Of a DNA stretch of 35,006 bases, positions 5,522-28,779 are shown one piece after another; the stretch's first letter is position 1; each line of letters opens with the position of its first letter. The DNA comes from a virus (taxonomy: Duplodnaviria; Heunggongvirae; Uroviricota; Caudoviricetes): the IMG/VR virus record IMGVR_UViG_2778261448_000009, positions 1 to 35,006 of that record; one strand, given 5' to 3'. A program made the position numbers and the translations under genes. The notes beneath the pieces are model-generated. The model did no database searches and was not told the origin of the DNA. It saw only the letters and a list, made by a program, of their open reading frames with translations.

Positions 5522-5606
5522 ACAACCCCCTTTAATTAATACCCGTATTTATCAAAATATCAACAATTTAATAAATACCTTCATATTTCGTAATGAGGGT
5601 AATTAC

Positions 5607-7511
5607 ATGAAACTGATTTCAAATAAGGCAAAATTAAAAAAGATTCTCAAAAATGCAGCCAAATATATTACGCCACCGCCTAAGCTCCTTCCTTCTGAAT
5701 GGTGCGAAGCGAATCTAACGCTAGTCGATGGTCCTCGTGCTGGGGATAAAGTTAAATTACTGTCATTTCAGAAAGGCATGATTGATGCTCCTTTCCTTGA
5801 GAAGAAAAAGAAGTACGTTTTTTGTACGAGTGCACAGATCGGAAAGACGACCATCATGTCAGGGATTATGTTTAACCAGATGGCAAACGATCCGTGTAAT
5901 ATCATTATCGGGCAAAGTACCGCTAAAGAAGTGGCTATGTACTTGAATACTAAGATCCGTCCTTCTATTGAAGCATGTCCGGCATTACAGGAAGTGGTAA
6001 CAGATAAGAATGATCGTAATGCGGTAAACAACAATAACCAGATTCAGCTAAAAACAAACCATTTCCTTTACATGGTTTCTTTGACCAGTCCTTCAAGTTT
6101 GCGCGGGCGTACTGCCAAGTTAGGGATTGTAGACGAATGCGACGCAGCAACAATCACCGAAGAAGGTTGCCCGGTGGCACTAACTGCAAACCGTTTAACT
6201 ACCTTTGGTGATGAAGCTCGATTGATTGTTTCTAGTACCCCGACCAATAAGCTGGGAATTATTAACCAGCAATGGTTATCAAGCGATATGCGTATGTTTT
6301 TTGTTCCGTGTCCTCATTGCGGGGAACACCAGGTGATCGAGTGGGAAAACGTACAGTTTGAATGGCGTAACATTGATGGTAAGAACTTACCCGATCCTGA
6401 TACCGCTCGTTATATTTGCCCCCACTGTAAGAACGCATGGACAGAAGGAGAGCGGATCAGGGCGGTGGCACAAGGAGAGTGGAGAGCAACCCGTGAAAGT
6501 GAAGTAGCAGGATTCTGGATCAGCCGTCTGTATTCACCTTTCAGCACGATCCGCGCTTGTGTGGTTGATTTTAGTCATGCGTGGCAATCCTTTGATTTAC
6601 AATCATTTTATAACACCGTGTTAGGCAAGGTATACGACGATCAGGACACGGCAGTAGAAGCAAATGAACTGGAACAACTCAAAACAGATGTTTCTATCGA
6701 GAATATCCCTGATGACGTGATTTTCTTGTGTGCGGGTACTGACCAGCAATTAGATCGCGCAGAAACTACAATCATGGGCGTGGCAAAGGATAAGATTTAT
6801 ATTCTGGATCATCGCAGCTTTTACGATCATAACTGTGAACGATATGAATCCCCTGTATGGGATAGATTAATCAACTTCCATAAAACCAAATTTACTACTG
6901 TATCGGGTGATCGTGTTCCTATGCTCGCCAGCTTCCTTGATACATCGAACGGTCGATTCACTCAAGCCGGATACCGTATTTGCGGCAAGTGGAAGAACTT
7001 ACACGCTATCAAAGGTAGTTCTGCTGGTAACGCTCCGATCATTCCGGTTAAACCTACCCGCACAGGTGGTCATGAATTGCTTATGTTGGGTGTTAACGTG
7101 GGTAAAACTGCATTTCGTGAAATGTTGGCTAGGAACCTGAAAGATAATCCTCATATTAGCTTAGAAATATCAGACACCGTTCCTGATGATTATTTCGATC
7201 AGCTTTTAAGTGAATCTGTTAAGCGTACTACTACTGGCGTGAGATGGGTAAAGAACCCAGGCGTTAGGAACGAGGCGCTCGACTGCGCCGTGTATGCTAC
7301 AGCGGCTTCTCGCTACGTTCTTTCAAAAATGTCATGGGATAAACTCATTGCAATGAAAGACAGCTTAAACCGTGTTGTCGAAGAACCCGTAAAAGCTCCT
7401 AAATCGCAATCTAACGAGCAAATCGAAGAAACTAAGCCAATCACACGACCACAACGTCAAAACATCGCCAGACGTCCAAATAGAGGACGTAGCTGGATAA
7501 CATCGTTCTAA
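5607..7511 (+). CDS. terminase large subunit, lambda GpA family, 634 aa
   Basis: Motifs shared with my recollection of lambda gpA: CPHCGEHQV (lambda ACPHCGEEQ), [14 protein letters not shown] (lambda YSPFTT), [10 protein letters not shown] (lambda GIDSQLDRYE), [15 protein letters not shown] (lambda RRNEALDCFVYALAA). RBS GAGGG before the ATG. Confidence 0.85.
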
Positions 7512-7517
7512 TCATTC

Positions 7518-7535
7518 GCCGTCCTTCGGGGCGGC
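7518..7535 (+). other. intercistronic stem-loop with UUCG tetraloop
   Basis: GCCGTCC-TTCG-GGGCGGC directly after the terminase stop; no U-run follows. Confidence 0.45.
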
Positions 7536-7583
7536 TTACTCCTAAATATTGTTAATCCAATAACAATTAAATAAGGGGTAATT

Positions 7584-8078
7584 ATGAGTTTAGAACTAAT
7601 TCCCTTAGTAATTCGTAAAGGCGAAAAAATCACGCTGGCGAATGAAGAGGGTGTAACAATTCAGGTAGGAAATAGTAAAGGTATCATTTATCAGGTTGAT
7701 GATTCTCCGGCTAATCACGAGATTAAAACCTTAGATTTTGCCGAGGGTAAATATACCATCGTAACCACGTTGGAAGATGAACTGGTATCAATGCAGGAAT
7801 TAACTGTTTTGCCAGTATTCGCCAAACAATCCAAAAAAGAATATCTGCGGGAAACTATCGCCTTAATCGAGCAAGTTATTTTCGCCCGTTTATCTGGGGA
7901 CGAAGCCGCATTATCTCAAATGACCGTGAAAGGGAATACTTTCGCTTATGAATCATTAGGTGTTCTCCAGCAATTGAAGACTGATTATGAACGTCAGTTA
8001 TCTAAATTAATTCAAGCCGAACGACGTAAACAGGGAATTAGCCCGATTAAAAATATCAAATTACGTCTTACGCGATAA
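7584..8078 (+). CDS. hypothetical protein, 164 aa, at the position lambda gpW occupies between terminase and portal
   Basis: RBS AAGGGGTAATT before the ATG; assignment by position only. Confidence 0.45.
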   Translation: MSLELIPLVIRKGEKITLANEEGVTIQVGNSKGIIYQVDDSPANHEIKTLDFAEGKYTIVTTLEDELVSMQELTVLPVFAKQSKKEYLRETIALIEQVIFARLSGDEAALSQMTVKGNTFAYESLGVLQQLKTDYERQLSKLIQAERRKQGISPIKNIKLRLTR

Positions 8079-8088
8079 GGGGTAAATC

Positions 8089-9600
8089 ATGTTTAATCTT
8101 TTTCGACGCAAAAAGGCGGTAGAAACTCCAGTTAAAACTAATCACCGCCAGCAACAACAAAAAATCTTTATCGACAAACAAGTAGAAAAATTCCAGAAAG
8201 ATTTGTCTAAGCGTTCTTTGGGCTTAGTCGGTGATCGTATTGATGGATCACTTCAACAAGACACCATTACAGGAACCTTCAATAAGGCTCTCAAATCAAA
8301 CGGTAAGCGCCTTTATGATCAGGGTCGTACTCTGGCCTTAAACACTTCCGTAGGCAGTCGCTACACGCAATACATCACCGATATGGTGGTAGGTACTGGC
8401 CTAGATCCGAAGCCATCAATCGTTAAATCAAATGGCAAACTTGATAGCGCACTGAATAAGCAGATCGAGAATGCTTTCTGGAAGTGGGCGCAGAACGCTA
8501 AACGCTTCTCTCGCAATGGTCGCTTTAACTTCCGTGAACTGCTGGTAATGGCTGAACGTGAGCGCGTTATGGGTGGTGAGTGCTTCATCGTTTTAACCAA
8601 AGAAAACAATGAGTTAAATGTTTCCATCCTGTCTGCTGATAAGTGCGACTGGTCGCTAAACCGTGAAGTAAGCAAAGAACGTGCTATCTATCAGGGGATC
8701 GAGTATGACGTAGAAACAATGAAGCCAGTAGCATACTGGTTTCGTAAAATCAACCTACTGACTCAGACTTACACAGGTGATAACTATCGCGTAGATGCAT
8801 CGCAAGTATGCCATTATTATCAACCACTTACAGCCGAATCCCTGCGTGGTGTGACTGACTTCCTGCCAGTGATCAAGGATATCGCACATCAAGACGCATT
8901 CCGCGAAACTGCAATTATCCAGAAACGTATTGCGGCTAGTTCTATGGGCTTTATCGAACGTCCGAAAGATTCTGGTGACGATTTTGATACTGGTGAAGAG
9001 GATGAACAATATCAAGCGCCGGAAGTAGTACAGGATTTTGCACCTGGTACTATTCAGGAATTACCGGAAGGGGCAACGATCAAGAGCATCCAGGCGACGC
9101 AAAGCGGTGATGACTTCAATTCCTTTAACGATGCGATGTTTACTAGCGTATCAATGGGCTTAGGCGTGTTTAAACAGGGCTTAACTGGCGATACTAGCCA
9201 AATAAATTACAGCGCTGCACGCTACGGCGAATTACTTCAAAGAACGCGCGTTAAAGCACTGCAAAACAAATTGATTGAAACAGTGGTGTCGCCCATTTTC
9301 GAAGCATATCTACGCCATTATTCCGCGCGTGGTATTGTTCCGATTCGTATTACTGCAATTCCACATATTATCGATAATACAACTATTATTCGTCCGCGTT
9401 TTGAATCCGTCGATCCATTTAAAGACGTAAGCGCCGAGATTGCTTTAATTGATAAAGGACTTAAATCACGTACTGCCGTTATTCTTGAACGTGGTGATGA
9501 TCCTGAAAAAGTATTCTCAGAGATTCAAGCCGAAAAGAGCGCACTAAATATTATCGTTAATGGCGAGGGTGAAGAAAAAAATTCCCCAGCCGATCCCTAA
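8089..9600 (+). CDS. portal protein, 503 aa
   Basis: Position immediately after terminase and before the protease-capsid gene; size typical of lambda-family portals; acidic C-terminal tail. Confidence 0.7.
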   Translation: MFNLFRRKKAVETPVKTNHRQQQQKIFIDKQVEKFQKDLSKRSLGLVGDRIDGSLQQDTITGTFNKALKSNGKRLYDQGRTLALNTSVGSRYTQYITDMVVGTGLDPKPSIVKSNGKLDSALNKQIENAFWKWAQNAKRFSRNGRFNFRELLVMAERERVMGGECFIVLTKENNELNVSILSADKCDWSLNREVSKERAIYQGIEYDVETMKPVAYWFRKINLLTQTYTGDNYRVDASQVCHYYQPLTAESLRGVTDFLPVIKDIAHQDAFRETAIIQKRIAASSMGFIERPKDSGDDFDTGEEDEQYQAPEVVQDFAPGTIQELPEGATIKSIQATQSGDDFNSFNDAMFTSVSMGLGVFKQGLTGDTSQINYSAARYGELLQRTRVKALQNKLIETVVSPIFEAYLRHYSARGIVPIRITAIPHIIDNTTIIRPRFESVDPFKDVSAEIALIDKGLKSRTAVILERGDDPEKVFSEIQAEKSALNIIVNGEGEEKNSPADP

Positions 9601-9608
9601 TAACCAAC

Positions 9609-9625
9609 GGGGGCGCAATGCCCCC
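9609..9625 (+). other. intercistronic stem-loop between portal and capsid genes
   Basis: GGGGGC-GCAAT-GCCCCC; no U-run follows. Confidence 0.4.
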
Positions 9626-9645
9626 AATTAATTAAAGGTGATTAA

Positions 9646-11745: not shown

Positions 11746-11750
11746 TAATT

Positions 11751-11777
11751 AGCCCTGCCTAACGGTGGGGCTTTTTT
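11751..11777 (+). terminator. rho-independent terminator
   Basis: AGCCCTGCC-TAAC-GGTGGGGCT then TTTTTT; near-identical to the terminator at 17621. Confidence 0.75.
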
Positions 11778-11807
11778 GTATGTAAATACTCCATAAAGGG
11801 GGTAACT

Positions 11808-12098
11808 ATGTTCAAATTATCAGAATCACAATTATCAAGAATGTTTAAGAGTGCTCCTGTATTTGTGGTGGAAGGTGGTAAATCAATTCGTGCTTATCAT
11901 GAAATTACTACTACCGACGAATCAGGTGTAATGACAGAAACCGAATTTCTATTCTGTCGTGAGGGAGACTTAAAGCAAGGTGATATTGTCACAGTAGAAA
12001 ACCAGCGTTTCAAAGTTCAATACGTTAAGCGCAATGGTGACAATACTTGTGATTGCTTTATCACTTTAGCAGGGGGTACACATGCTCGCTACCGTTAA
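11808..12098 (+). CDS. hypothetical head-tail joining protein, 96 aa (lambda FII position)
   Basis: RBS AAGGGGGTAACT before the ATG; assignment by synteny only. Confidence 0.4.
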   Translation: MFKLSESQLSRMFKSAPVFVVEGGKSIRAYHEITTTDESGVMTETEFLFCREGDLKQGDIVTVENQRFKVQYVKRNGDNTCDCFITLAGGTHARYR

Positions 12099-12504
12099 TA
12101 ATATGCCGAGACTGAAAATCAAACGCGCCTTGCAAGATATTATCGAACAAGATTTAGGTCTGGCTTTAAACGTAGAACAAACTCAGCAAGGCTTTAGTGA
12201 TGACGTGGTTTGTTGGATTACTGGCATGAATGAAACTTATACGCGTGTTCGTGGTGGTAATGCAATGCAAGCTGAATGCGTTATCGAAATGCAATTATAT
12301 TCTCAGATTCATGAAACCAAAATTCATGAGGGTATTTGCCAGATAATCCAGATTCAGCCGGATAACCCACGTTTTAAAGATTTGGGCTTCTCAATTTCAG
12401 ATATCACTCCAGTAGCTTCTAATACCGATTATGACGATGATTCTAGTGATGGGGGTATCGTTGGGACACTTAGCCTTAAATTTTCTTATCTAGCGCGTTT
12501 TTAA
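12082..12504 (+). CDS. hypothetical head-tail or tail-completion protein, 140 aa (lambda Z/U position)
   Basis: Overlaps the upstream gene by 17 nt; AGGGGG before the ATG; assignment by synteny only. Confidence 0.4.
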   Translation: MLATVNNMPRLKIKRALQDIIEQDLGLALNVEQTQQGFSDDVVCWITGMNETYTRVRGGNAMQAECVIEMQLYSQIHETKIHEGICQIIQIQPDNPRFKDLGFSISDITPVASNTDYDDDSSDGGIVGTLSLKFSYLARF

Positions 12505-12513
12505 GGGGTAATA

Positions 12514-13347
12514 ATGAATATTACACAAGATAACTTAGACATTTTCACGGGGTCACATGTTGTCGTTTCCGTGTCTGATATGGTTGATAACCAGCCGGAC
12601 TTCTTCGATCCCAGCTTTAGCCCGATTGATAACGTGGCATCATTCCCGACGATCACCGAATCCACCGAGATAGAAACTCTTGAGGAATATGATCATGATG
12701 CTACTGGTAAACTTGCCGGATACCGCAAATTAGAACCGACTACGCTTGTTTTAAACCGTGTTCTTGACGATGAACATCAAGCAATGTTGATGAAAGCGGT
12801 AGAGGATAAAACACCTTTACGCTTCCGTATGTTCTATGTTGTGAACTCTGGCTATAGTGCTGCTAACACTGGTTACTATGTCATCTATGACGCTTATGTC
12901 ACATCACACAAAACCCGTGGTAGTGATAACAAAGCTGTAACACTGGAATTTAAACTTGAACCAGATGGCGGGATTTTGGATCGCGGTATTGCAACCGAGG
13001 GTCGTCTGCTCCGTCAGGGCGATATGGGCGTTGGTGCAGGAATTAGCCCGTTCACTGGTCCTACCGATAGCGAAGTATTAGCGGGTAACAGATTTGTAAC
13101 TTACAAGGGAACTGCTAGCGGTAATCCATACTCAGCTGACACATCATTAATTCACCTTCAAGCTAATGAGCATGGCGCATGGCAATTAACCTGTAATACT
13201 TCTGGCGCACCGCGTTTACGTGTCCGAAATATTCAGGAAAACGGTCGTTCTGAATGGATCAAGGTATATTCCACCAATGAGAAACCGACACCTAGCGAAA
13301 TTGGCGCAGTGGCTAAGACTGACCGGATCGATTTCGGCGAATACTAA
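12514..13347 (+). CDS. major-tail-protein (gpV-like) paralog with an extra C-terminal domain, 277 aa
   Basis: N-terminal DIFTG motif shared with the 157-aa gene at 17022; DDEHQAMLMKAVEDKTPLRFRMF resembles lambda gpV [23 protein letters not shown] as I recall it; C-terminal EKPTPSEIGAVAK recurs in the fibre. Confidence 0.5.
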   Translation: MNITQDNLDIFTGSHVVVSVSDMVDNQPDFFDPSFSPIDNVASFPTITESTEIETLEEYDHDATGKLAGYRKLEPTTLVLNRVLDDEHQAMLMKAVEDKTPLRFRMFYVVNSGYSAANTGYYVIYDAYVTSHKTRGSDNKAVTLEFKLEPDGGILDRGIATEGRLLRQGDMGVGAGISPFTGPTDSEVLAGNRFVTYKGTASGNPYSADTSLIHLQANEHGAWQLTCNTSGAPRLRVRNIQENGRSEWIKVYSTNEKPTPSEIGAVAKTDRIDFGEY

Positions 13348-13410: not shown

Positions 13411-13428
13411 ATAGTGAGGTGATTCTAG

Positions 13429-16400
13429 ATGCAATCAATCCAATTTAAACGCACACAGACGGCTGGTAAAAAGCCGACGCCGGAACAATTATCACAGGGT
13501 GAAATCGCCTTACAGTTGGCGGATCATGTGATTTACACCAAAGACAAAAATAATAACGTAGTCCAAATTAGTGTTTCTCCAGAAAAACACGCTGAACTGA
13601 ATACGAAAGTAGACACCAACAAGGTCAATACAGATAAAGTCATTTCAGCAAATAAAACCGAAGCCGCTAATAATCTGGCTAGTGCTAAAGCTGAACTGAA
13701 TCAGACTATCACTTCTACCCGTGATACTCTCAATGCTTCAATCACTGCTGGCGATACCGCAGCCAACAAACGAATTGATGCTTTGACTACCACAGTAGGT
13801 AACAATAAAACCGAAGCGGCTAACGCTCTGGCGGCTGCTAAGACTGAACTGAATCAGACTATTACTTCAACCCGCGATACTATCAACGCGACAATTAACA
13901 AGAACAAGACAGATATTAATGCGCGAGTTGATCAGACGAATACCAACGTTACCAACTTAACGAATACTGTCGCAGCAAATAAATCAGCAATAGAAAAGAC
14001 GGTAGCGGATAATAAGAAAGATGCGGACACGAAGATCACCAATCTTACTAGTACGGTCTCTGCGAATAAGACGGCCATTGAAAGAACTGTTGCAAATAAC
14101 AAGGCCAGTGCCGATGCCGCAATTGCCGCAGCTAATCAGCGAATTGATTCGATTGAAGGTAGTGCCGATGCTGCTTACATCAAGAAGAATACCAACACTT
14201 ACCATCACGGCTATCTGTTAACCAAAACAGCTAACTATTTGGAAGACCAGACAGCGAGAGATCTTAACTACTTTGGTGCTTTCCGTACCAATGGTCAAGA
14301 TGGACTCATGGATCTAACTCTTAACGTTCCTCACTCTGCCGGCAAAGCGCACGGTCGCGGATTTACTTTCCGTTATGCGTCTGGTGGATCTCGTGTTGAA
14401 ACCTATGGTTTTGATAGAGAAGGACAGAAGAACTTTAGCTATAAGATGTATCACGAAGGTGATAAGCCGACTCCTGGCGAGATTGGTGCATACACCAAAG
14501 CCGAAGTTGATAAGATGTTTGTTAAAAACGTCGTTATGTCTGTTCCCAATTCTAGCGAAAACGTATCTGCATATTTCAAATTGGCAACCGCAACAATTCC
14601 ACAAAACGGGCGTAGTGTGTTTTTCCGTATTCATGGTGGTAATGGTTACAACGTTACGGCATATGACCAAGTTGATGTAGTAGAAATTCTTCTCCGTAGT
14701 GGTAACGATAGACCTAAAGGTCTTAACGTAATTGCATACCGTAGAAATACAAACAAAGATTTTGAGGTATTTGCTGTCAATACTTCCGGTGATAACTATG
14801 ATATCTACGTGAAATATCAGCGTTATACCGATAACGTTATTGTCGAATATGGGAAATCTGTTTATGTAAGTTTGACGGTTTATGATACGCCGGAAGCCAC
14901 GTTAATTAAACCTTCCGTTGGTGTTATCGGTGGTCGCAACGTAACTCTTTTTAACACAGAAAATAAACGTGGTGTGTTGAGTTTTGACGATAACACACAA
15001 AATAGTTATGATATTGTTCACTTGAGTAATGATAGGGGTACTGGTCGGAAATATATTCGTAAATTCCGTAGCAACTATAACGAAATGATCTGGCATGAGA
15101 CGGTTCAAGGTTCTACTTATCGACTCGCCACGGGTAGTACAGATTCTCAGGAGATTCTATCCGTTGAATCTAGTAGCTCTATTGCTGGGACTCATAAAGG
15201 TAATATTCTTTCTGGTCGAATGATGTTGGGTGGCGGTAGTAATGTTATTACCTTGCGGCGTCCTGCTGGTCAATCCAACCATATTGCGTTTCAAGATAAT
15301 CGGACTGGAGATATTACCCGTCAAGGGTGGATCGGTTATGGTAATGCTGATACTAACGTTTTTGAATGGTATAGTGATGTAGGTGGTACTTCTATTCGTC
15401 ACCACATAGACGGACAGATCGAATTTCAGACAGGTAACACAAAACGAGTTTATACTAACGCTCAATTCATCTCAATGAATAGCGACGCCTACCGCATGAT
15501 CTACGGTAATTATGGTGCATTCTGGCGTAATGACGGCAATAAAGTTTATCTTCTTTCTACTGCCGAAAATGATAAATTGGGCGGATGGAATGGAAACAGA
15601 CCGTTCATTTACGATTTGACTAACGGTAAAGTTACTTTAGGCGGTGATGGTAACGAAGGTGCATTAGTTCTTGAAAGAGATAGCCGTGCTGCCCGTTTTA
15701 GCAACAATGTATTCTTAGAAAAAGGACTGCTTACTTTCTCTGCTGGTGGAAATCAGTCGATGGATTCTTTTACGATTAACCATTGGGGGAATAGTAATGC
15801 CAATCGATATAACGTTTTGCAATTCCAGGACACTAGCGGAACTCACTTTACTACAGAACGTAACGGTACTGGTGGCTTACTTGCTCATTTCCGAGGGGAT
15901 TTAACTACCGAAGGAAAATTAACGTGGGGCAAAAATACAGCTACTTCTAGCTTTAATATCCGTGCGTGGGGTGCTGATGCTCGTAAACAAGTATTCGAAT
16001 GTGCGGACGAAAGCGGTTGGCACTGGTACACACAACGACCGGGCGGTCCGGGTACTGAATTAATCGAGTTTGCCATCAACGGTACTGTTAAACCTAAAGC
16101 AATTCACACTGGCGGTAATATCACGCTTAACGGTGCTGATATTGAGTTTCGTCGCAGTGGCAATAAGCATTTGTGGTTTAGAGATCCAAATGGCTTAGAA
16201 TTGGGTCTGTTGTACTGCGATGATGCTGGCGTTATGCGTATGCGCGGTGAGAAACAAACCGAAGTCTGGAAATTCGGCGGTAAGATGATTCACCTTGAAA
16301 CGGGCACTGTATCCGGTGGCGGTAATGGTCTTATTCGTGGTAGCGTTGCTGGTGGTAGTTGGGCTAGCTGGCGTGATCGTGCTTCTGGTATTCAGGTCGA

Positions 16401-16965
16401 TTGTCAACAATCAACCGATTCCGCTCATAACGTATGGAAAGCAACCCATCAAGGTAAATATCATATCGCAGCAATGGGTGTACATGTTCCTAGCGGTACT
16501 ATCGGTAACGCTACAGTTAAACTTCATGTTCATGACGCTGGTTTTGACTTTAACGCTGCTGGTGACTTTACCGCAGGTCGTAACGGTTCGTTTAACGATG
16601 TTTACATTCGCTCTGACTCCCGTTTGAAGATTAACAAGGAAGAATTACAGGACGGTGCATTAGAGAAAGTAAACTCCCTGAAAGTATACTCTTACGATAA
16701 AGTTAAATCTCTTTCCGATGACACAGTGATTAAACGCGAAGTAGGTATTATTGCTCAGGATCTGGAAAAAGTATTACCGGAAGCAGTAGGTATTCAATCC
16801 ACCGAAGATCCAGAACATCCAGAAGCAATCAAGACTATTTCTAACTCTGCTGTCAATGCTTTAATCATCAAAGCAATGCAGGAAATGACCGCTAAGTTTG
16901 ATGCTATGGCTAAAGAACTTGCCGAAACTAAAGCTGAATTAGCCGAACTGAAAGCAACTAAATAA
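13429..16965 (+). CDS. side tail fibre, 1178 aa, with C-terminal intramolecular chaperone (peptidase S74-like) domain
   Basis: N-terminus MQSIQFKRTQTAGKKPTPEQLSQGEIALQLADHVIY; tandem about 50-aa repeats (NKTEAAN-LA-AK-ELNQTITSTRDT) at nt about 13650-13900; C-terminal SDSRLKINKEELQDG...VGIIAQDLEKVLPEAV followed by a coiled coil, as in self-cleaving fibre chaperone domains. Confidence 0.75.
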   Translation: MQSIQFKRTQTAGKKPTPEQLSQGEIALQLADHVIYTKDKNNNVVQISVSPEKHAELNTKVDTNKVNTDKVISANKTEAANNLASAKAELNQTITSTRDTLNASITAGDTAANKRIDALTTTVGNNKTEAANALAAAKTELNQTITSTRDTINATINKNKTDINARVDQTNTNVTNLTNTVAANKSAIEKTVADNKKDADTKITNLTSTVSANKTAIERTVANNKASADAAIAAANQRIDSIEGSADAAYIKKNTNTYHHGYLLTKTANYLEDQTARDLNYFGAFRTNGQDGLMDLTLNVPHSAGKAHGRGFTFRYASGGSRVETYGFDREGQKNFSYKMYHEGDKPTPGEIGAYTKAEVDKMFVKNVVMSVPNSSENVSAYFKLATATIPQNGRSVFFRIHGGNGYNVTAYDQVDVVEILLRSGNDRPKGLNVIAYRRNTNKDFEVFAVNTSGDNYDIYVKYQRYTDNVIVEYGKSVYVSLTVYDTPEATLIKPSVGVIGGRNVTLFNTENKRGVLSFDDNTQNSYDIVHLSNDRGTGRKYIRKFRSNYNEMIWHETVQGSTYRLATGSTDSQEILSVESSSSIAGTHKGNILSGRMMLGGGSNVITLRRPAGQSNHIAFQDNRTGDITRQGWIGYGNADTNVFEWYSDVGGTSIRHHIDGQIEFQTGNTKRVYTNAQFISMNSDAYRMIYGNYGAFWRNDGNKVYLLSTAENDKLGGWNGNRPFIYDLTNGKVTLGGDGNEGALVLERDSRAARFSNNVFLEKGLLTFSAGGNQSMDSFTINHWGNSNANRYNVLQFQDTSGTHFTTERNGTGGLLAHFRGDLTTEGKLTWGKNTATSSFNIRAWGADARKQVFECADESGWHWYTQRPGGPGTELIEFAINGTVKPKAIHTGGNITLNGADIEFRRSGNKHLWFRDPNGLELGLLYCDDAGVMRMRGEKQTEVWKFGGKMIHLETGTVSGGGNGLIRGSVAGGSWASWRDRASGIQVDCQQSTDSAHNVWKATHQGKYHIAAMGVHVPSGTIGNATVKLHVHDAGFDFNAAGDFTAGRNGSFNDVYIRSDSRLKINKEELQDGALEKVNSLKVYSYDKVKSLSDDTVIKREVGIIAQDLEKVLPEAVGIQSTEDPEHPEAIKTISNSAVNALIIKAMQEMTAKFDAMAKELAETKAELAELKATK

Positions 16966-16972
16966 TAAAAGT

Positions 16973-16991
16973 CGGGGGACTAGTTCCCCCG
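16973..16991 (+). terminator. hairpin after the fibre gene, weak terminator
   Basis: CGGGGGA-CTAGT-TCCCCCG; the downstream U-run is poor. Confidence 0.4.
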
Positions 16992-17021
16992 TTATAACAA
17001 ATTTAATTAAGGGGTAATTAT

Positions 17022-17495
17022 ATGTCTCAACAATTCAAAGATATTTTTACTGGTGGTTTGGTAAGTCTGTTCTATCACGCTGATACCACTAACACCGATC
17101 TTGCTGATGAAGCATACGAAGAAATTAAAGAGTGTGCTGGTTTTCCTGAAACTGGTATCGAGCGCGGTACTGTAGAAGTTAAATCCTTCTCTTCTCAGTA
17201 TAACCGTAAACTGGTAGGGAAGCTGAACGTTCCTGATCTGACTCTGACCGTTAACTACATCCCAGGCGATGCGGTACATGAAAAACTGATCAAAGCTGCC
17301 GAAGACGGTACTCGTATTCAGATTAAAGTAGAATATTACGTTGACGCAGCAAAACAGACTGGTATTCGCACCGCTTTCAACGGCTTCATTTCTAAAGTTG
17401 CTATGAACGGTGGCGATGAAGAAGTTGTAACCAAAGAGTTTACCTTTGCTGTTGATGGTGCTCCGCTGAAACAGCAAATCTTCACTGCCGGATGA
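17022..17495 (+). CDS. major tail tube protein, gpV N-domain-like, 157 aa
   Basis: DLTLTVNYIPGD, EDGTRIQIKVEY, FNGFISKVA and TKEFTFAV parallel lambda gpV [32 protein letters not shown] and TRTVKVTNV as I recall them; RBS AAGGGGTAATT; strong terminator downstream; TGA stop. Confidence 0.65.
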   Translation: MSQQFKDIFTGGLVSLFYHADTTNTDLADEAYEEIKECAGFPETGIERGTVEVKSFSSQYNRKLVGKLNVPDLTLTVNYIPGDAVHEKLIKAAEDGTRIQIKVEYYVDAAKQTGIRTAFNGFISKVAMNGGDEEVVTKEFTFAVDGAPLKQQIFTAG

Positions 17496-17615
17496 ACTAA
17501 CGAAGAACTTCCCGAACCGGAACCACAGCCGGAACATGAAGCGGTGGTGATTCCAGAAGTAGAAGAAGTTACGGCGAAAGCCACAGCTAAACGAAGCCGC
17601 AAGGCTAAAGATTAA
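17496..17615 (+). other. in-frame 39-codon extension after the tail-tube TGA stop (candidate readthrough product TNEELPEPEPQPEHEAVVIPEVEEVTAKATAKRSRKAKD)
   Basis: Open to TAA at 17613-17615; shares NEELPE and VTAKATAK with the capsid extension; identical 24-nt core GTTACGGCGAAAGCCACAGCTAAA. Confidence 0.5.
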
Positions 17616-17620
17616 TTATA

Positions 17621-17648
17621 AGCCCTGCCTTAATGGTGGGGCTTTTTT
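17621..17648 (+). terminator. rho-independent terminator
   Basis: AGCCCTGCC-TTAAT-GGTGGGGCT then TTTTTT. Confidence 0.75.
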
Positions 17649-17663
17649 ATTGGAGTAATCAAA

Positions 17664-18170
17664 ATGGCGAATGTCGTTAATAAGCCTGGCTGGGTCGGGT
17701 CATCTGCTGTTTCTGTAACTGGTCAACGATGGATGAGCGCAGCAATGAACGCATTAAAGGTTAGTCGCCCAGCTAACATGAGTGCGATGTGTGGTCGTGG
17801 TATGGATACGGTTGTAGCTACTGCTGCGTGGACTACTTCATTGGGTAATAACTGGGGTGTAACTGCTTCAAACTATCCAGTAACTGACATGCGCGGTAAA
17901 GGATCTATGGAGAACCCCGAAAACGTGGGCGTAGGGCGTCTGATTGGCGTTATCGTTGGTCAATTCAATGGTGGTACTCCTACTATGGCTGTATATCTCC
18001 AGAACGGTAGAGCGGGGAATATAACCGTTAATTTGGGTGGTGCTGCTGTCACTGTTCCTTATAACAGTATGCAAAGTGGTTTTCATTACTATTGGTTAAG
18101 CAATCCTCCGGCTGCTTTCCTAACAAATATTAAGAAGGCTGGCACTAAGCAGACTTTGAAAATCTCTTAA
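17664..18170 (+). CDS. hypothetical structural protein, 168 aa
   Basis: RBS GGAG before the ATG; sits between the tube and chaperone genes; Gly/Thr/Val-rich, beta-rich composition; no family recognised. Confidence 0.4.
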   Translation: MANVVNKPGWVGSSAVSVTGQRWMSAAMNALKVSRPANMSAMCGRGMDTVVATAAWTTSLGNNWGVTASNYPVTDMRGKGSMENPENVGVGRLIGVIVGQFNGGTPTMAVYLQNGRAGNITVNLGGAAVTVPYNSMQSGFHYYWLSNPPAAFLTNIKKAGTKQTLKIS

Positions 18171-18215: not shown

Positions 18216-18524
18216 ATGAATCTGAATGAAATGCTGAAAGCTCTTTCTCCGAAACGTGAATCTTTAACCCTCGGCGGATTTACGTTCTATGCTCGCCCTA
18301 TGTCGGTGCAAGAATTTAATGAACATGTTTTCAATACTGATAAAAAAGACCGTGATGAACGCTCTATTCTTCGTTGTATTGAAGATGAAGACGGTAAGCC
18401 AGTATTTGAATCTATTGAACAAGTTAAGGCACTGTATACTAGCGTCCGCAGTGAATTAATCGGCTTAGTTGCTCAAGCATCATTGATGAAAGATGCGGCG
18501 GTAATTGAAAACGAGGTAAAGTAA
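18216..18524 (+). CDS. tail assembly chaperone, gpG-like, 102 aa
   Basis: Immediately upstream of the tape measure gene; RBS GAGGAA; followed by a -1 frame ORF with no RBS of its own. Confidence 0.6.
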   Translation: MNLNEMLKALSPKRESLTLGGFTFYARPMSVQEFNEHVFNTDKKDRDERSILRCIEDEDGKPVFESIEQVKALYTSVRSELIGLVAQASLMKDAAVIENEVK

Positions 18525-18907
18525 ACCCGCTCTTGAATTTTTATTTTCGGCAAATGATGCGTCGGGGCTTGAGTAAAGATGAGATGGATAATATGCCAAT
18601 TACGCTATTTTGGGCGTTGCATATATTCGATACATATCTTGAACCACAAAGCCCCCTATATCAAGATGCGCGACATGCACAGTCGATGTATTACATGCAC
18701 GTTACATCTCCTAACATGACTCGTGAATGGTTGAATAAAATCAATGTTAACCAATTCCGAATGATTAAGGACGACAAGCAATTTAAAACGCAAGAAGAAA
18801 TAAAAGAAATTGCTCGTAAGAAAGAGGAAGAACGTAACTCTGCTTTGGTTGATAGTTATTTCGACGCTTCATTATTACAAAAGCTCAAGAGCGGTCAATT
18901 GGGGTAA
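18518..18907 (+). CDS. gpT-like -1 frame extension of the tail assembly chaperone (GT fusion by programmed -1 frameshift)
   Basis: The -1 frame is open from 18509 to TAA at 18905; proposed slip at A-AAG (18518-18521) with the zero-frame TAA in the A site; the only start the ORF finder found is TTG at 18533 with no Shine-Dalgarno. Confidence 0.5.
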   Translation, partial: KVNPLLNFYFRQMMRRGLSKDEMDNMPITLFWALHIFDTYLEPQSPLYQDARHAQSMYYMHVTSPNMTREWLNKINVNQFRMIKDDKQFKTQEEIKEIARKKEEERNSALVDSYFDASLLQKLKSGQLG

Positions 18908-18910
18908 TTT

Positions 18911-21265
18911 ATGACAAAACATATAGTAACAATAGAAGGGGATAATAAAGGTCTAAGGAGAAGTACCAATCAGGCGATAGAGATGCTTGATAACCTTTCA
19001 GAAAGGGCAATGAATCTTGATTTGTCTGGTGGTTTATCTAGTTTAAGTGGAACCCTTCGCGGAACTGGTGGATCGCTTGCTTTGGCTGCTGGTGGTTTTG
19101 TTGGTTTGGCTGCTGGCGCTATTTCTGCTGCAAATGCCATCGGTGATTATGTAAAGGAATACAGCGAAGTTTCAAAAGCAACTGGTTTAACCGTCGAAAC
19201 ACTCCAGAAATTAGAGAAGCAATTCTCCGGTACTGGCTTAACCGTTGAGAAATTTGGTGATATTAACAAAGACACCTTAGATAAGCTGGCTGATGCATGG
19301 CGTAACGGTGGCGGTATTGAAGACGACCTAGAAAGTGTAGGTTTGAAGATTAAAGATTATGCCGAGTTTATGAACGATCCACAAGGCGGGATGAAAGCGG
19401 CGATCAAGGTCTTCTATGATATGCGCAAGGCTGGTGCGTCTATCGCTGATGTTAAGTTTATGATGGAATCGTTAGCCAGTGATTCAAGTCATATGGCTGA
19501 TGAATTGCAGAAATACGGATCTTATCAGGAAGCTGTAAACGCCATTAATCAGCAAACTGTTAAAATCACCAATGACACAGCCGAAGAATATAATAAATTC
19601 TCTAAAAATATGGATACCCTTACCGATAACTTAAAGGGTATGGCTGCAAATGCACTAAATCCAGTTGTTGAAGGGATGAATAATCTTTACAACTGGTTTG
19701 ATAAAGATTGGGAAAAGACCGCTTTATTCAACGCATTAAAGACTTTTAATGAAAGGTTTGAAAAAGCTCGCCAGAATATGGCTATGGCTAACGGTGGTTT
19801 TATTAACAAGCATGGTTATAGTTCTACTGGTCTAGCGGGTGGACAAGCCAGCTTCAACAATAAACCAAATTATCCTGATCGTTGGGTGGATAGTGAAGGC
19901 GTTACCCGTGATAAAAACGGTGATCCGGTAATTACTATCACTGGAAATAAATCGGATACCGGATTTACCCCAACGGGTCAAGGTGGAGGCGTCACCGGAC
20001 CATCGAAAAAAGAACAAGAAGAAGCCAAGAAGAAAGCGGAAGAGGCAGCTAAAAAGGCTAAGGAAGCCGCAGAAAAAGCACAGAAAGCACGCGAGGATGC
20101 AATCAAGCGACTGAATGCTCTTGATGTTAAATTGCAAGGACAGACAGCCGCGTCTATTGCTTCTCAAAACAAGCAGTTAGAAGCCAGCTTGAAAGATTTA
20201 GACACTGCTTTAGATATGGGCTTAATCTCTCAGCAAGACGCAGCCGCTAAACGTCAGCAACTGTTAGATCAGAACGCAGAAAACATCTATAAAATGATGT
20301 TGGGTGCTGATCCGATTGATGCTCTGAATGCCTTAACAGTTTTGCAACAAATCAGGGACAACGAGCTAGAAAGCCATAAACGGTTACTTGATGGTAAAGC
20401 TATCTCCTACGAAGAATATATGCGTCGTGTGAATGATACCGAGCAAAACTATTCTCAGATTGATAGTCAGTTACAGGGAATGGATGGTTTTAAAACCAAT
20501 CAATTGACTAATAGCTTAGACTATCAGGATTCAAATAACCCGTTTGCTAAATTTAATGCAATCGATCAAGAGAAATCGGAAGCTGAACAAGATTATAAGA
20601 CCGAAAAACTCAATATTGATGGTATTAATGATCCAGCTAAACGGATGGCTGCATTAGAAAAACTCAATGAAAACCATCAAAAACGGATGGCTGCAATTGA
20701 AAAGAAATATGCTGATGCTCGCCAGTCAATAGCCGATGATATGTATGGCGGTTTTGCTGCTGCAATGACTCTCTTCGGGCAGGAAAACACTAAAGCTATG
20801 CAGATGGCTTTCAATGCTCATAAAGCATTCTCCATTGGACAAGCGACGGTGAACATGTGGACGGCTGCTACCGATGCATGGAACGATCCGACCAACGTAA
20901 CCACAGGACAAAAGATCGCTGCTGCTGCATTGGCTGTTTCTCAGAACATGGGGAACATCGCAAACATCAAGTCTACTAACGTTAGCGGTATGGCTCATGA
21001 TGGTATCGATAATATCCCTCGTGAGGGTACATGGTTGCTTGATAAGGGTGAACGAGTAGTTGATCAGCGTACTAACGGTGATTTGAAAGACTTCCTTGCT
21101 GCTCAAAAATCAGGCGGTGGCAACTCTCAGCCGATTGAAGTTAACGCACCTTTGAACATTAACGGCAACGTTAATAGCTCAGACAAGATGGTCATGGATG
21201 CTATCAAACGTCACGCTAAGTTAGTTGCTCAGGCGGTAGAAGACGCACAACGCCGTAAGATGTAA
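18911..21265 (+). CDS. tail tape measure protein, 784 aa
   Basis: Position after G/GT; long helical Ala/Lys/Glu-rich repeats (KKEQEEAKKKAEEAAKKAKEAAEKAQKARE); Gly-rich N-terminal segment. Confidence 0.8.
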   Translation: MTKHIVTIEGDNKGLRRSTNQAIEMLDNLSERAMNLDLSGGLSSLSGTLRGTGGSLALAAGGFVGLAAGAISAANAIGDYVKEYSEVSKATGLTVETLQKLEKQFSGTGLTVEKFGDINKDTLDKLADAWRNGGGIEDDLESVGLKIKDYAEFMNDPQGGMKAAIKVFYDMRKAGASIADVKFMMESLASDSSHMADELQKYGSYQEAVNAINQQTVKITNDTAEEYNKFSKNMDTLTDNLKGMAANALNPVVEGMNNLYNWFDKDWEKTALFNALKTFNERFEKARQNMAMANGGFINKHGYSSTGLAGGQASFNNKPNYPDRWVDSEGVTRDKNGDPVITITGNKSDTGFTPTGQGGGVTGPSKKEQEEAKKKAEEAAKKAKEAAEKAQKAREDAIKRLNALDVKLQGQTAASIASQNKQLEASLKDLDTALDMGLISQQDAAAKRQQLLDQNAENIYKMMLGADPIDALNALTVLQQIRDNELESHKRLLDGKAISYEEYMRRVNDTEQNYSQIDSQLQGMDGFKTNQLTNSLDYQDSNNPFAKFNAIDQEKSEAEQDYKTEKLNIDGINDPAKRMAALEKLNENHQKRMAAIEKKYADARQSIADDMYGGFAAAMTLFGQENTKAMQMAFNAHKAFSIGQATVNMWTAATDAWNDPTNVTTGQKIAAAALAVSQNMGNIANIKSTNVSGMAHDGIDNIPREGTWLLDKGERVVDQRTNGDLKDFLAAQKSGGGNSQPIEVNAPLNINGNVNSSDKMVMDAIKRHAKLVAQAVEDAQRRKM

Positions 21266-21270: not shown

Positions 21271-21315
21271 AGCCCCCATAGTCATAAATAATCATAAAAC
21301 TATGGGGGCTTTTCT
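21271..21315 (+). terminator. long hairpin after the tape measure gene whose 3' arm contains the Shine-Dalgarno of the next gene
   Basis: 11-bp perfect stem AGCCCCCATAG/CTATGGGGGCT with an 18-nt loop, then TTTTCT, then ATG at 21316; GGGGG at 21304-21308 lies in the stem. Confidence 0.5.
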
Positions 21316-22529: not shown

Positions 22530-22575
22530 TCCCTTCTCCCTAAGCCTAGTAAATAACTGCATGGAGGTATTCAAC

Positions 22576-22995
22576 ATGCTAAAAACTAGGCTTATCACCG
22601 ATTACATCAATTCTTTAATAGGTCAGGAGTTCGTTCAAGGTGAGAATGATTGCAATCTAATTGCATGTAAGATCATCGATATTCTCGCTGGTACTGACCT
22701 ATATAATTCTCTTTATAAAAAATATTCAACTAAAGAAGAAGGCTTGAAAATCTGCAAAGAATTAAGCGGGTATTCAAATATCCTTCAACCAATTAAGAAA
22801 CATTTCAAATTAGTCACTGATGATTTACAGGACGGCGACTTACTGGTCACAGCCCACAAATTAGGAAACCGTAATTATTATTCCGTAGTTCCTCATTATT
22901 CCGGTTATGGCCTCGTTGAAGAAGATGGTATCTGGATGACCATTCCTGTTTCAGACATTGACTATGAACAAGTTTATAGATTCGGGGGTGAATAA
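22576..22995 (+). CDS. tail tip assembly protein, NlpC/P60-like (lambda gpK C-terminal-domain-like), about 139 aa
   Basis: GENDCNLIAC and DLQDGDLLV parallel lambda gpK GVTDCYTL and AQPGDVLLC as I recall them; GGAGG 8 nt before the ATG at 22576, which is in frame with the longer track ORF 22420-22995. Confidence 0.5.
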   Translation: MLKTRLITDYINSLIGQEFVQGENDCNLIACKIIDILAGTDLYNSLYKKYSTKEEGLKICKELSGYSNILQPIKKHFKLVTDDLQDGDLLVTAHKLGNRNYYSVVPHYSGYGLVEEDGIWMTIPVSDIDYEQVYRFGGE

Positions 22996-26771: not shown

Positions 26772-26789
26772 AATTTAATTTTAATAATA

Positions 26790-26830
26790 AATCCCGCTTA
26801 ATTCTTTTGAGTTAGGCGGGATTATTTTTA
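26790..26830 (+). terminator. rho-independent terminator after the J-like gene
   Basis: AATCCCGC...GCGGGATT stem with an extended loop, then a U-rich tract. Confidence 0.6.
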
Positions 26831-26876
26831 TCTAAATAATTTTGCCATTAAACTATATAAAAATATCGGGGGCGTA

Positions 26877-27155
26877 ATGACTGAAATTATATATGGCGGT
26901 ATCGGTGTTATCGCCTTAATTTGTGGTGGGCTTTGGAGACTTCACCGAAATCAATTAGCCACAGAAAATAGATTGTCGAAATTAGAGTCCAATGATGCAT
27001 TGTTTAATCAGAAGTTTGAGACGATGCAAAGTAACCATGACCAGATCGCCGAGAGAGTTTATCGCATGGAACAAACCCTTCACGGTATAGAAAAGAAAGT
27101 GGTTGCGATGGACGCTAAATTTGACCAAGTTATCGATTTACTCAGACAAAAATAA
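26877..27155 (+). CDS. membrane-anchored coiled-coil protein, 92 aa (possible lysis-associated protein)
   Basis: N-terminal hydrophobic helix IIYGGIGVIALICGGLW followed by heptad-like sequence; RBS GGGGG. Confidence 0.45.
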   Translation: MTEIIYGGIGVIALICGGLWRLHRNQLATENRLSKLESNDALFNQKFETMQSNHDQIAERVYRMEQTLHGIEKKVVAMDAKFDQVIDLLRQK

Positions 27156-27174
27156 TAATAAAAGGGGTGAATAT

Positions 27175-27345
27175 ATGAAGAATAAACTTAAGAAATATTT
27201 TGGTTATCTCTTGATTGTCGCCCTCACTTATAACGTAGCAATTAGACCTCTGCTGACGTCCTTTGGGCTTGAACTCCCGGCTATGACCGTGGATGAACAA
27301 TTGCTAAGGACACTGGCGGGGGTCTTTTCGTTATTAGGGGGCTAA
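27175..27345 (+). CDS. small membrane protein, about 56 aa (holin candidate, weak)
   Basis: I place the start at the ATG at 27175 after AAAGGGGTGAAT; two hydrophobic segments (YFGYLLIVALTYNVAI and LAGVFSLLGG). Confidence 0.35.
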   Translation: MKNKLKKYFGYLLIVALTYNVAIRPLLTSFGLELPAMTVDEQLLRTLAGVFSLLGG

Positions 27346-27346
27346 C

Positions 27347-28030
27347 ATGGCAACCAGTACCAATAAACGAAACGCTCTAAGGACTAAGAAAGCGTTACGG
27401 CAATGGTCTGAAAAGGCAACCGATACATTCGAAAGGGCGATAGGGGAAGGGGCGATCTTTGCTGCTCGTGCACTACAGAAGAAGATTAACAAGAATGTTG
27501 ATAGACCTACTCGCTGGACTCAGCAAGCTGTAGGTAATACCAACTACAAGAACCGATCAGGGACGAGACACCAAATCTTCATCAAGGGCGCAAGGGATAA
27601 GGACAAGAAGATCGGCAGTCAGGATGACTATCTGAAACACTATTTCGATGGTGGCAAAATCAATAAGCTAGTGCCAATTGCCAACGGTAAGGTCTTAGAC
27701 GCCCACGGGAACATTAAGGCCATCAAAGGCGGTAAGATGATGCGTAACATCGAAAACGGCAACTTCATCAAGGTAGAGAACAAGGAAGGGACTTTTATCA
27801 TGAAGAAGTACAAGCCTAAGAAATCCCGAACCAAACGCGCTAGGAATGGATCGGCGGTGGCAAAACGTCGCTTAGAGAAACGCATCCAGAAACAGAGTAA
27901 GCGAATTGTTGCCGTTAAGTCGGATAAAATTTCTACTCGTTATTCGACGCTAGGATCGTGGGAAAGCAACGAGGAAATGATGCTTGAAAACATCAATAAG
28001 CACATTAAATCGCGCATGAGATACGTTTAA
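27347..28030 (+). CDS. hypothetical very basic protein, 227 aa
   Basis: Lys/Arg-rich throughout; ATG 1 nt after the upstream stop; function not recognised. Confidence 0.5.
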   Translation: MATSTNKRNALRTKKALRQWSEKATDTFERAIGEGAIFAARALQKKINKNVDRPTRWTQQAVGNTNYKNRSGTRHQIFIKGARDKDKKIGSQDDYLKHYFDGGKINKLVPIANGKVLDAHGNIKAIKGGKMMRNIENGNFIKVENKEGTFIMKKYKPKKSRTKRARNGSAVAKRRLEKRIQKQSKRIVAVKSDKISTRYSTLGSWESNEEMMLENINKHIKSRMRYV

Positions 28031-28068
28031 TCCATAAATACCCTCATAGAATCTTATGGGGGTATAAC

Positions 28069-28416
28069 ATGGCTAAAAATATTTTCACTGAATTTCCTAC
28101 TTATCCGGTCGATCAGCTTTCCGGTATTTTTATTAATGGCATTAGCCCAGAATCCATGACACATGATTTTGAGGCGAAGAGAGTTAAACATAAACAATAT
28201 AAAGAATGTATCCGCGATCATGAAAAAGGGACCGTGTTTTGTGTCGCTACATTGGCTAAACGTCCTAAGTATCGTTTTCGTGTAGGACAAGAAGTTGATG
28301 TGGTTAATCCTTATAGCTTTAACTGTCTGGGTGATGCACGCGCGGTGTGTGTAGGCACTGCTCCTTATTATATCAAGGGTATGCGCTTTATTGGTTATAT
28401 CTTCGAAATGATCTAA
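28069..28416 (+). CDS. hypothetical protein, 115 aa
   Basis: RBS GGGGG before the ATG; no family recognised. Confidence 0.5.
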   Translation: MAKNIFTEFPTYPVDQLSGIFINGISPESMTHDFEAKRVKHKQYKECIRDHEKGTVFCVATLAKRPKYRFRVGQEVDVVNPYSFNCLGDARAVCVGTAPYYIKGMRFIGYIFEMI

Positions 28417-28425
28417 GGGGGTAAT

Positions 28426-28779
28426 ATGTTAAGCAAACATTTTTCTCGCAAGGAATTTAAATGTAAATGCGGAAAATGTGATTATGATACAATCGACGCT
28501 GAATTACTGGTAATTCTTGAGGATGTACGAGAGCACTTCGGTAAACCAGTGATTATTAACAGTGGCAACCGTTGCCCGACTCATAACAAGAATGTAGGCG
28601 GTGCAACCAACAGCTATCACGTTCGAGGCCGTGCGGCTGACATTGTGATCAAGGGTGTCTCCCCTGATATTGTCCATGCTTATCTTGATGGGAAATACCC
28701 TACTCAATACGGCTTAGGCAAATATAAAACCTTTACGCATATCGATTCCAGATCGAAAAAATCACGATGGAATGGATAA
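28426..28779 (+). CDS. endolysin candidate, peptidase M15-like zinc peptidase, 117 aa
   Basis: SRKEFKCKCGKC...NSGNRCPTHN..VGGATNSYHVRGRAADI...FTHIDSR gives an H...D...H metal-ligand pattern as in M15-type phage peptidoglycan peptidases; terminator follows. Confidence 0.65.
   Translation: MLSKHFSRKEFKCKCGKCDYDTIDAELLVILEDVREHFGKPVIINSGNRCPTHNKNVGGATNSYHVRGRAADIVIKGVSPDIVHAYLDGKYPTQYGLGKYKTFTHIDSRSKKSRWNG

Follow-up and report, generated by a model that had tools for sequence, protein, structure and literature searches.

A G-run cassette before the late genes of an Escherichia coli prophage, probably a lineage-specific Shine–Dalgarno dialect

The 16S ribosomal RNA (rRNA) of Escherichia coli ends in GAUCACCUCCUUA-3′, and in phage T4 the RegB nuclease cleaves GGAG within the Shine–Dalgarno sequences (SDs) of early mRNAs. 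Poly(G) SDs initiate strongly in E. coli, which was attributed to G·U wobble pairing, and among the endogenous SDs of E. coli they are uncommon, GGGGG being present in 73 of 4566 (Kuo et al. 2020, PMC7263185); the SD of the lambda S gene is also GGGGG (bioRxiv 10.1101/2025.05.14.654169). According to a 2026 study, E. coli ribosomes, unlike those of Staphylococcus aureus, do not accommodate a start-proximal extension of the SD helix, and steric hindrance by bS21 was suggested for the extended helix in E. coli (PMC13009471). For adjacent genes, translational coupling in E. coli collapses by ~20 nt, distances of −8 to +10 nt are predictive of coupling, and gene pairs at +9 to +12 nt just fit an SD, independent initiation being thought likelier there (Huber et al., PMC10666635). 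Here we describe a cassette, (T)AAGGGG(G)T(A/G)A, in a tailed-phage DNA of 35,006 nucleotides (IMG/VR record IMGVR_UViG_2778261448_000009, positions 1 to 35,006; hereafter the window, always at its full length). It stands 4–7 nt before the ATG in 14 of the 21 late genes. Judged from its sequence, it is very probably the SD ribosome-binding site (RBS) by which a temperate E. coli phage has its late genes (head, tail, lysis) translated, written in a poly-G dialect peculiar to its lineage.

The window is a temperate phage, an E. coli prophage. Prophages that match its terminase–portal stretch at 80–99% identity are present in the chromosomes of 55 of 5426 complete E. coli genomes; the best-matching prophage is that of E. 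coli UTME-9, which is inserted in ycdX and is 96% identical over this stretch. A DNA-level search of phage and plasmid collections with the window gave no match. The + strand from 5607 to 28779 (~23 kb) constitutes a lambda-like late module, which encodes the large terminase, head-tail joining protein, portal, a protease/major-capsid fusion, connectors, a T4-like long tail fibre with gp38-like adhesin, tail tube, chaperone, tape measure, tip proteins and an M15 endolysin. As start codon, the ATG that comes first in a long open reading frame (ORF) was used throughout, and these starts agree with the annotation of the UTME-9 prophage by the Prokaryotic Genome Annotation Pipeline (PGAP). Conservation was followed in 33 relatives, which are 32 IMG/VR contigs (89–96% capsid identity) and UTME-9.

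Cassette sites and complementarity to the 16S rRNA tail

An earlier note on this DNA had listed nine positions at which a common word precedes a start codon. At each of them the word stands immediately in front of the ATG of a long ORF, and six extra sites were found at 12071, 21304, 22984, 26868, 27337 and 28058. The exact 11-mer TAAGGGGTAAT is present in three copies against 0.03 expected from dinucleotide shuffles. Of GGGGTAA there are seven copies on the sense strand, and no more than 12 nt separate each of them (7/7) from the ATG of an ORF of 50 aa or more. The antisense strand has one copy, which is not before an ATG-ORF. On the sense strand of the late module, 14 of 47 G-runs (at least four G) end 4–7 nt before a start, and the positions eligible for this amount to 1.2% of the late region (binomial P 2e-16). 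The cassette is thus commoner before starts than elsewhere in the genome, and a chance or compositional origin is ruled out by the shuffles, the strand counts and the binomial P. The sites are given below, followed by two late genes with canonical forms and two of the G-run or related sites outside the late module.

5595..5606, + strand: GAGGGTAATTAC, before ATG 5607 of the large terminase gene; a three-G SD variant, kept in 30/31 relatives
7572..7583, + strand: TAAGGGGTAATT, before ATG 7584 of the head-tail joining protein gene; a 72-nt untranslated gap lies 5′, and the TAA is not a stop codon
8076..8088, + strand: TAAGGGGTAAATC, before ATG 8089 of the portal gene; TAA 8076–8078 is the stop of gene 7584–8078
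11794..11807, + strand: TAAAGGGGGTAACT, before ATG 11808 of a head-tail attachment-like gene; downstream of the terminator that trails the capsid gene
12071..12081, + strand: AGGGGGTACAC, before ATG 12082, within the 3′ end of the coding sequence (CDS) 11808–12098 (17-nt gene overlap); retained in 33/33 relatives although the flanking codons vary
12502..12513, + strand: TAAGGGGTAATA, before ATG 12514; TAA 12502–12504 is the stop of gene 12082–12504
17008..17021, + strand: TAAGGGGTAATTAT, before ATG 17022 of the tail tube gene, with a 56-nt gap 5′; at this junction 13/26 relatives have another allele, with AAGGAAAAG
18901..18910, + strand: GGGGTAATTT, before ATG 18911 of the tape measure gene; TAA 18905–18907 is the stop of ORF 18533–18907
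21304..21315, + strand: GGGGGCTTTTCT, before ATG 21316 of the distal tail protein gene
22984..22994, + strand: GGGGGTGAATA, before ATG 22995 of a tail tip/fibre gene, with stop/start overlap TAATG; predicted duplex energy −14.5 kcal/mol
26868..26876, + strand: GGGGGCGTA, before ATG 26877
27162..27174, + strand: AAGGGGTGAATAT, before ATG 27175 of a 56-aa gene, which is also PGAP-annotated in the UTME-9 prophage
27337..27346, + strand: GGGGGCTAAC, before ATG 27347; the G-run lies within the end of CDS 27175–27345 (1-nt gap)
28058..28068, + strand: GGGGGTATAAC, before ATG 28069; hairpin sequestration is predicted
28414..28425, + strand: TAAGGGGGTAAT, before ATG 28426 of the M15 endolysin gene; a 12-nt near-complement of the 16S tail, predicted at −12.5 kcal/mol; TAA 28414–28416 is the stop of gene 28069–28416
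9634..9645, + strand: AAAGGTGATTAA, before ATG 9646 of the protease/major capsid fusion gene; same register, canonical GGTGAT form, predicted at −10.8 kcal/mol
13414..13428, + strand: GTGAGGTGATTCTAG, before ATG 13429 of the long tail fibre gene; canonical GAGGTGAT form, predicted at −14.0 kcal/mol
3549..3565, + strand: TAAGGGGAATTTTTACT, before ATG 3566 of the Rha-family regulator gene; one of three non-late G-run SDs
5522..5532, − strand: AAGGGGGTTGT, before the ATG of the minus-strand gene 4916–5521

It had escaped the earlier note that the word as a whole, with its TAA and TAAT, is nearly complementary to the 16S rRNA 3′ tail. The full complement of this tail is UAAGGAGGUGAUC, and the longest cassette form, TAAGGGGGTAAT at 28414–28425, is identical to it at 10 of 12 positions; written against the rRNA, UAAGGGGGUAAU complements A1531–A1542 (canonical complement UAAGGAGGUGAU). 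The deviations of TAAGGGGGTAAT are the replacement of the central A by G, which makes a G·U wobble with U1537, and of the G of GGTGAT by A, mismatched with C1533. When the central A is absent (four-G form), UAAGG and GGU are still paired in the predicted duplex, and U1537 is bulged out. Duplex predictions with the 16S tail gave −8.5 to −14.5 kcal/mol for the 14 G-run sites, in all of which the spacer to the ATG is 4–7 nt. T stands opposite A1534 in 11/14 of them, and the base that follows the one opposite C1533 is A in 10/14. With at least four G in place of GGAGG in 14/21 late genes, eight of which have GGGGG, the cassette belongs to the poly(G)/GGxGG class of SDs. On account of the complementarity, the duplex energies and the spacing, its anatomy is read as that of an SD site. 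In the form (U)AAGGGG(G)U(A/G)A, 4–7 nt before the AUG, the pairing partners would be the 3′-terminal UUA of the rRNA for the upstream TAA, CCUCC for the G-run and A1534 for the U after it, and the remaining A/U-rich bases would act as spacer.

Host contrast, conservation and origin of the dialect

The note had called the word far more uniform than a generic SD, and this was borne out against both annotated E. coli genes and lambda late genes. Genes with a given word within 20 nt 5′ of the start were counted for the 21 late genes and for 126 PGAP-annotated E. coli genes (~160 kb), with the following result.

GGGG: late genes 14/21, E. coli genes 13/126, Fisher P 9e-8
GGGGT: late genes 11/21, E. 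coli genes 3/126, Fisher P 9e-9
GGT[AG]A: late genes 12/21, E. coli genes 6/126, Fisher P 3e-8
AGGA: late genes 1/21, E. coli genes 48/126, Fisher P 0.002

GGAG was found upstream of 3/21 late genes. GGGGG stands before 8/21 of them, against the 73/4566 given for endogenous E. coli SDs (PMC7263185). The mean predicted duplex energy of the late genes is −9.6 kcal/mol vs −6.4 kcal/mol for the host genes (Mann–Whitney P 6e-6), a stronger predicted binding of the 16S tail than in host genes. The late genes of lambda have a mean predicted strength of −8.6 with GAGG in 13/24, GGAG in 10/24 and GGGG in 3/24. Since they are similarly strong with other words, the strength is typical of a phage late operon and the flavour is not. 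We infer ribosome binding and the expression level at the cassettes from these sequence comparisons.

Outside the late module, a G-run precedes 3/12 genes of the window. The early region has an SD flavour of its own, (A)GAGGAT, unlike the late G-run: it was seen at 2545–2561 and 3115–3131, before genes 2562 and 3132, and also at 13160–13174, 13806–13820, 17183–17197 and 17764–17778 of the relative L033.

The cassettes are retained at orthologous junctions across the relatives. None of 35 G-run sites varies (nucleotide diversity, pi, 0), and of the three nucleotides before the G-run 1/24 sites varies (pi 0.0025). Variation rises to 6/46 sites in the spacer (pi ~0.02), pi is 0.036 further upstream, and at third codon positions 164/392 sites vary (pi 0.144). 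The variants seen are an A/G exchange opposite C1533 and one-base changes in G-run length. The invariant G-run beside variable synonymous sites agrees with the proposal of the note that this is a translation-initiation context under selection. A length polymorphism of the G-run (GGGGG/GGGGGG) was observed in L001–L033 at the junctions orthologous to 11808 and 21316, where adjoining A- and T-runs also vary by one base; this suggests homopolymer slippage.

More distant relatives have other SDs. In the first 26 kb of DCP80, the closest cultured relative (terminase 45%, capsid 43%), the SDs are GAGG, AAGGA and AAGGAG, and four IMG/VR relatives with 38–42% terminase identity have a uniform TAAGGA(A/T)A. 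In a relative at 80% identity, TAAGGAT replaces TAAGGGGT before the portal gene. Among the GTDB species representatives, relatives were found only at ≤30% identity. When IMG/VR was scanned for the exact cassette, the matches listed were mostly single and scattered, and among them two per locus occurred only in relatives of this prophage. A clade-wide trait is ruled out by the other SD flavours at 38–45% terminase identity, and the dialect is lineage-specific because the relatives at ~40% identity have TAAGGA or GAGG. Ordinary SDs are found on accessory late genes that were swapped into UTME-9 and on most early genes. TAAGG is thus the older part, which the relatives have in common, and GGGG(G)T arose within the E. 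coli prophage lineage, where purifying selection now maintains it. Two factors together best explain the uniformity of the cassette: descent from a common ancestor within the prophage lineage, and purifying selection that keeps ribosome binding strong and at the right distance on a long polycistronic late mRNA.

Several points weigh against the identification of the cassette as a poly-G SD dialect. The host comparison rests on just the 126-gene sample, and the PGAP start calls in it are themselves informed by an RBS model. Seven late genes have other SDs (GGAG, GAGG, GGTGAT). A perfect GGAGG would bind stronger, so that strength alone leaves the replacement or deletion of the central A at 14 junctions unexplained. 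Opposite C1533, the U is followed by a mismatched A in 9/14 sites and by a pairing G in just 3/14, and pairing of the AAU part is doubtful, given the behaviour reported for E. coli ribosomes (PMC13009471). As these ribosomes reportedly do not take up such an extension and the next base is usually a mismatch, AAT was treated mainly as A/U-rich spacer.

The loss of the central A also invites the view that the dialect is adaptive in itself, full complementarity to the 16S tail being kept while the central A of GGAGG is systematically removed, which would tune strength or register or mark a translational class. We consider this very unlikely. If it were true, duplex strength and register would be tuned for a long polycistronic mRNA, or the early AGAGGAT and late GGGGTAA classes would be distinguishable by a phage or host factor.

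Alternative roles of the word

That the cassette is primarily a termination–reinitiation junction, in which a ribosome at the TAA is held by the adjacent SD, restarts at the ATG and thereby fixes the stoichiometry of virion proteins, is possible and on balance rather unlikely. The note had stated that the TAA is in several cases the stop codon of the upstream gene. This holds at 8076, 12502 and 28414 (upstream TAA) and at 18905 (downstream TAA), and does not hold at 7572, 11794 and 17008, which lie within untranslated gaps of 56–149 nt. Eight of the 21 junction gaps (−17, −1, −1, +1, +3, +9, +9 and +10 nt) run from −17 to +10 nt, vs the −8 to +10 nt predictive of coupling (PMC10666635), so that the coupled translation proposed in the note is possible only at this subset with gaps of ≤10 nt. 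One gap is 19 nt and twelve are 38–168 nt. Where genes are 9–10 nt apart (8089, 12514 and 28426), the rRNA-pairing TAA would double as the stop codon of the upstream gene, and we infer that a terminating ribosome could reinitiate at these junctions as well as at the 1–3-nt gaps and overlaps; for the +10 nt class, independent initiation is favoured in the same study (PMC10666635). The SD at 18911 is predicted to be sequestered (P unpaired 0.01), which would make it depend on upstream translation, and yet no general sequestration is seen, the mean P unpaired being 0.34 vs 0.37 for shuffles (P 0.39). The identical word follows untranslated gaps of 45–150 nt (as at 7572, 11794 and 17008) and two intrinsic terminators. 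Coupling is therefore not the defining property of the cassette, as most cassettes are not beside a stop codon and long untranslated gaps and terminators precede some of them.

Three other roles would have the word act otherwise than as a plain SD. One is the shared RNA processing signal offered in the note, taken here as an endoribonuclease site (T4 RegB-like GGAG or RNase E) at which the late polycistronic RNA is cut into gene-sized pieces. The word does recur at gene junctions and the A/U-rich stretch after its G loosely resembles an RNase E site. It contains no GGAG, however, at every start it occupies precisely the place of an SD relative to the ATG, and an mRNA cut between its SD and AUG would be rendered inactive. 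Rfam gave no family match for the cassette in the window, and no RNase-like or RegB-like protein was among the Pfam/PHROG matches of the scanned window proteins, many of which have no recognised function. A possible hint of GGAG-directed activity is the threefold depletion of GGAG in the late CDSs (5607–28779, sense strand; 16 observed vs 46.6 expected from synonymous-codon shuffling, z −5.6, all three frames), where CTCC is not depleted; nor is GGAG in the non-late genes (18 vs 20). The depletion is equal in the DCP80 module, with an observed/expected ratio of 0.34 (CTCC enriched 1.8-fold) compared with 0.77 for E. coli genes and 0.86 for lambda late genes, and the DCP80 module uses canonical GAGG/AAGGAG SDs. 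Hence GGAG depletion is a separate feature of the family and not the cause of the dialect, and avoidance of a GGAG-directed RNase was rejected as the reason for GGGG. Altogether, the processing signal found no support and is extremely unlikely. For a class-specific code that is read by a phage factor (activator, repressor or modified ribosome) and gives temporal control of late translation, one may cite the GGGG(G)T of 14/21 late genes beside the mostly AGAGGAT early ones (2562, 3132 and more in L033; G-run in 3/12 non-late genes) and the many early proteins of no recognisable function. It is nevertheless highly unlikely: unmodified E. coli ribosomes use poly-G SDs (PMC7263185), the accessory late genes swapped into relatives have ordinary SDs, module ancestry explains the two flavours more simply, and no S21-, S1-, RegA- or Com-like protein was found among the window proteins scanned. 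A phage-encoded translation factor (S21, S1, RegA or RegB-like) was accordingly rejected, none being recognisable among these proteins. The least probable role, almost negligible in our view, is that of a boundary or linker sequence by which recombination among phage modules would be promoted. It does stand at gene boundaries of a mosaic phage, and one breakpoint cluster (17040; 8 relatives) falls 18 nt inside gene 17022, beside the 17008 cassette. The remaining breakpoint clusters against the relatives lie inside genes or elsewhere and not at cassettes, eleven bases are too short for efficient homologous exchange, and the strand and spacing specificity would be left unexplained. A promoter role was also rejected: a consensus scan found 31 promoter-like sites vs 44.5 expected from shuffles, none of which falls on a cassette, and at 12071 and 27337 the cassette is itself within the upstream CDS.

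SD accessibility and neighbouring features

Hairpins at 7584 and 11808 had hinted at masking of SDs by upstream anti-SD mimics, and as a general rule this was rejected when the 21 genes were compared with shuffled upstream sequence (P 0.39). Clear sequestration is predicted at four late genes only: 5607 (terminase), 18911 (tape measure), 21316 (distal tail protein) and 28069. In their upstream stretches (5570–5606, 18870–18910, 21275–21315 and 28033–28068) P unpaired is ≤0.01, and ≤5% of shuffles are as low; an example is ATACCCTCAT...ATGGGGGTAT before 28069. These four SDs may be subject to gene-specific translational attenuation or coupling, as far as folding predictions go.

Twin intrinsic terminators, nearly identical as AGCCCTGCC(T)TAA(C/T)GGTGGGGCTTTTTT, were observed on the + strand at 11751–11778 and 17620–17650, directly 3′ of the major capsid and tail tube genes, which encode the two proteins most abundant in the virion. 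The pair resembles an expression or attenuation cassette that has been duplicated. Just 5′ of the SDs of the same two genes (9608–9626 and 16973–16991, + strand) lie short hairpins that match each other, of the form CGGGGG-loop-CCCCC(G) and with A/T sequence like AATTAATTAA after them, so that each gene is bracketed by a 5′ hairpin and a twin terminator. Such 5′ hairpins might stabilise the mRNA or bound a processing product.

The tail chaperone region (18216–18907) has a G/GT-like ORF pair, 18216–18524 and an ORF in the −1 frame that is open over 18509–18907. A canonical X XXY YYZ slippery heptamer was sought at this pair and not found; there is only A AAG beside the stop. In a relative, an internal ATG without SD was annotated by PGAP at the pair. 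ARAGORN called a 91-nt tRNA-Gln(ttg) at 12269–12359 (−), opposite CDS 12082–12504, where Rfam gave no tRNA, and this call is probably a false positive.

The flanks of the window encode a Rha-family regulator, a UvsW-like helicase, endonuclease-like genes and a large serine recombinase, and for many early-region proteins no function was recognisable in profile scans (Pfam, PHROG). The G+C content of the window is ~42%, well under that of the host. The gene mix is unusual for a 35-kb lambda-like prophage, with the UvsW-type helicase at 28811–30310 (−), the T4-like distal subunit of the long tail fibre and gp38-like adhesin at 13429–18170 (+), and the large serine recombinase at 32273–33967 (−). 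Escherichia phage DCP80 (PQ671644.1; L037) is filed as a T4-like Gaprivervirus of 141 kb, and it opens with a 26-kb lambda-type siphovirus module (1–26000) that is related to the window prophage and adjoins the T4 genes motA, ndd and rIIA. The record is either a chimeric assembly or a real mosaic.

Comparison with known systems

The reading as a poly-G SD dialect opens no new mechanism, as poly-G SDs have already been shown to work in E. coli. Its use is rather in annotation and in the evolution of SDs. Gene finders trained on the AGGA/GGAG statistics of the host may under-score these starts, and the cassette can fix start codons in this prophage family, e.g., ATG 27175, 21876 and 22576. The late module would also be a clean natural example of a phage module whose SD dialect is unlike that of the host and unlike that of other modules of the same phage. 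The relatives at ~40% identity, with yet another dialect (TAAGGA), suggest that SD flavour drifts freely while strength and spacing are held.

Compared with the canonical E. coli SD/anti-SD interaction, the cassette is alike in position (4–7 nt before the AUG), strand and pairing partner. It differs in having G, or no base at all, for the central A and usually A for the G of GGUGAU, and its pairing has its centre nearer to the 5′ side of the anti-SD than that of the host-typical AGGA/GGAG. As in the poly(G) SDs (PMC7263185) and the GGGGG of lambda S, a G-run stands in place of GGAGG. Here it is no isolated case: two thirds of a 23-kb late module follow it as a rule, and the flanks of the run are conserved as well (TAA or AA before, T(A/G)A after). 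The extended SD–anti-SD helices of S. aureus (PMC13009471) are similar in that an A/U-rich spacer that could pair 5′ of CCUCC occurs in a low-GC genome, and the start codon's register would be fixed by a long, rigid SD helix; in the cassette, the base opposite C1533 is mostly a mismatch. With the +9 to +12 nt pairs and reinitiation sites of E. coli (PMC10666635, PMC6728339), it shares a stop codon directly 5′ of or inside the next SD, and overlaps or 1–3-nt gaps occur at four further junctions of the window, while most of its cassettes are not beside a stop codon. RegB sites of T4 are alike as a short purine word at the SD position before many phage genes; here, in contrast, the word is GGGG, it precedes late and not early genes, and no regB-like gene was detected among the scanned proteins.

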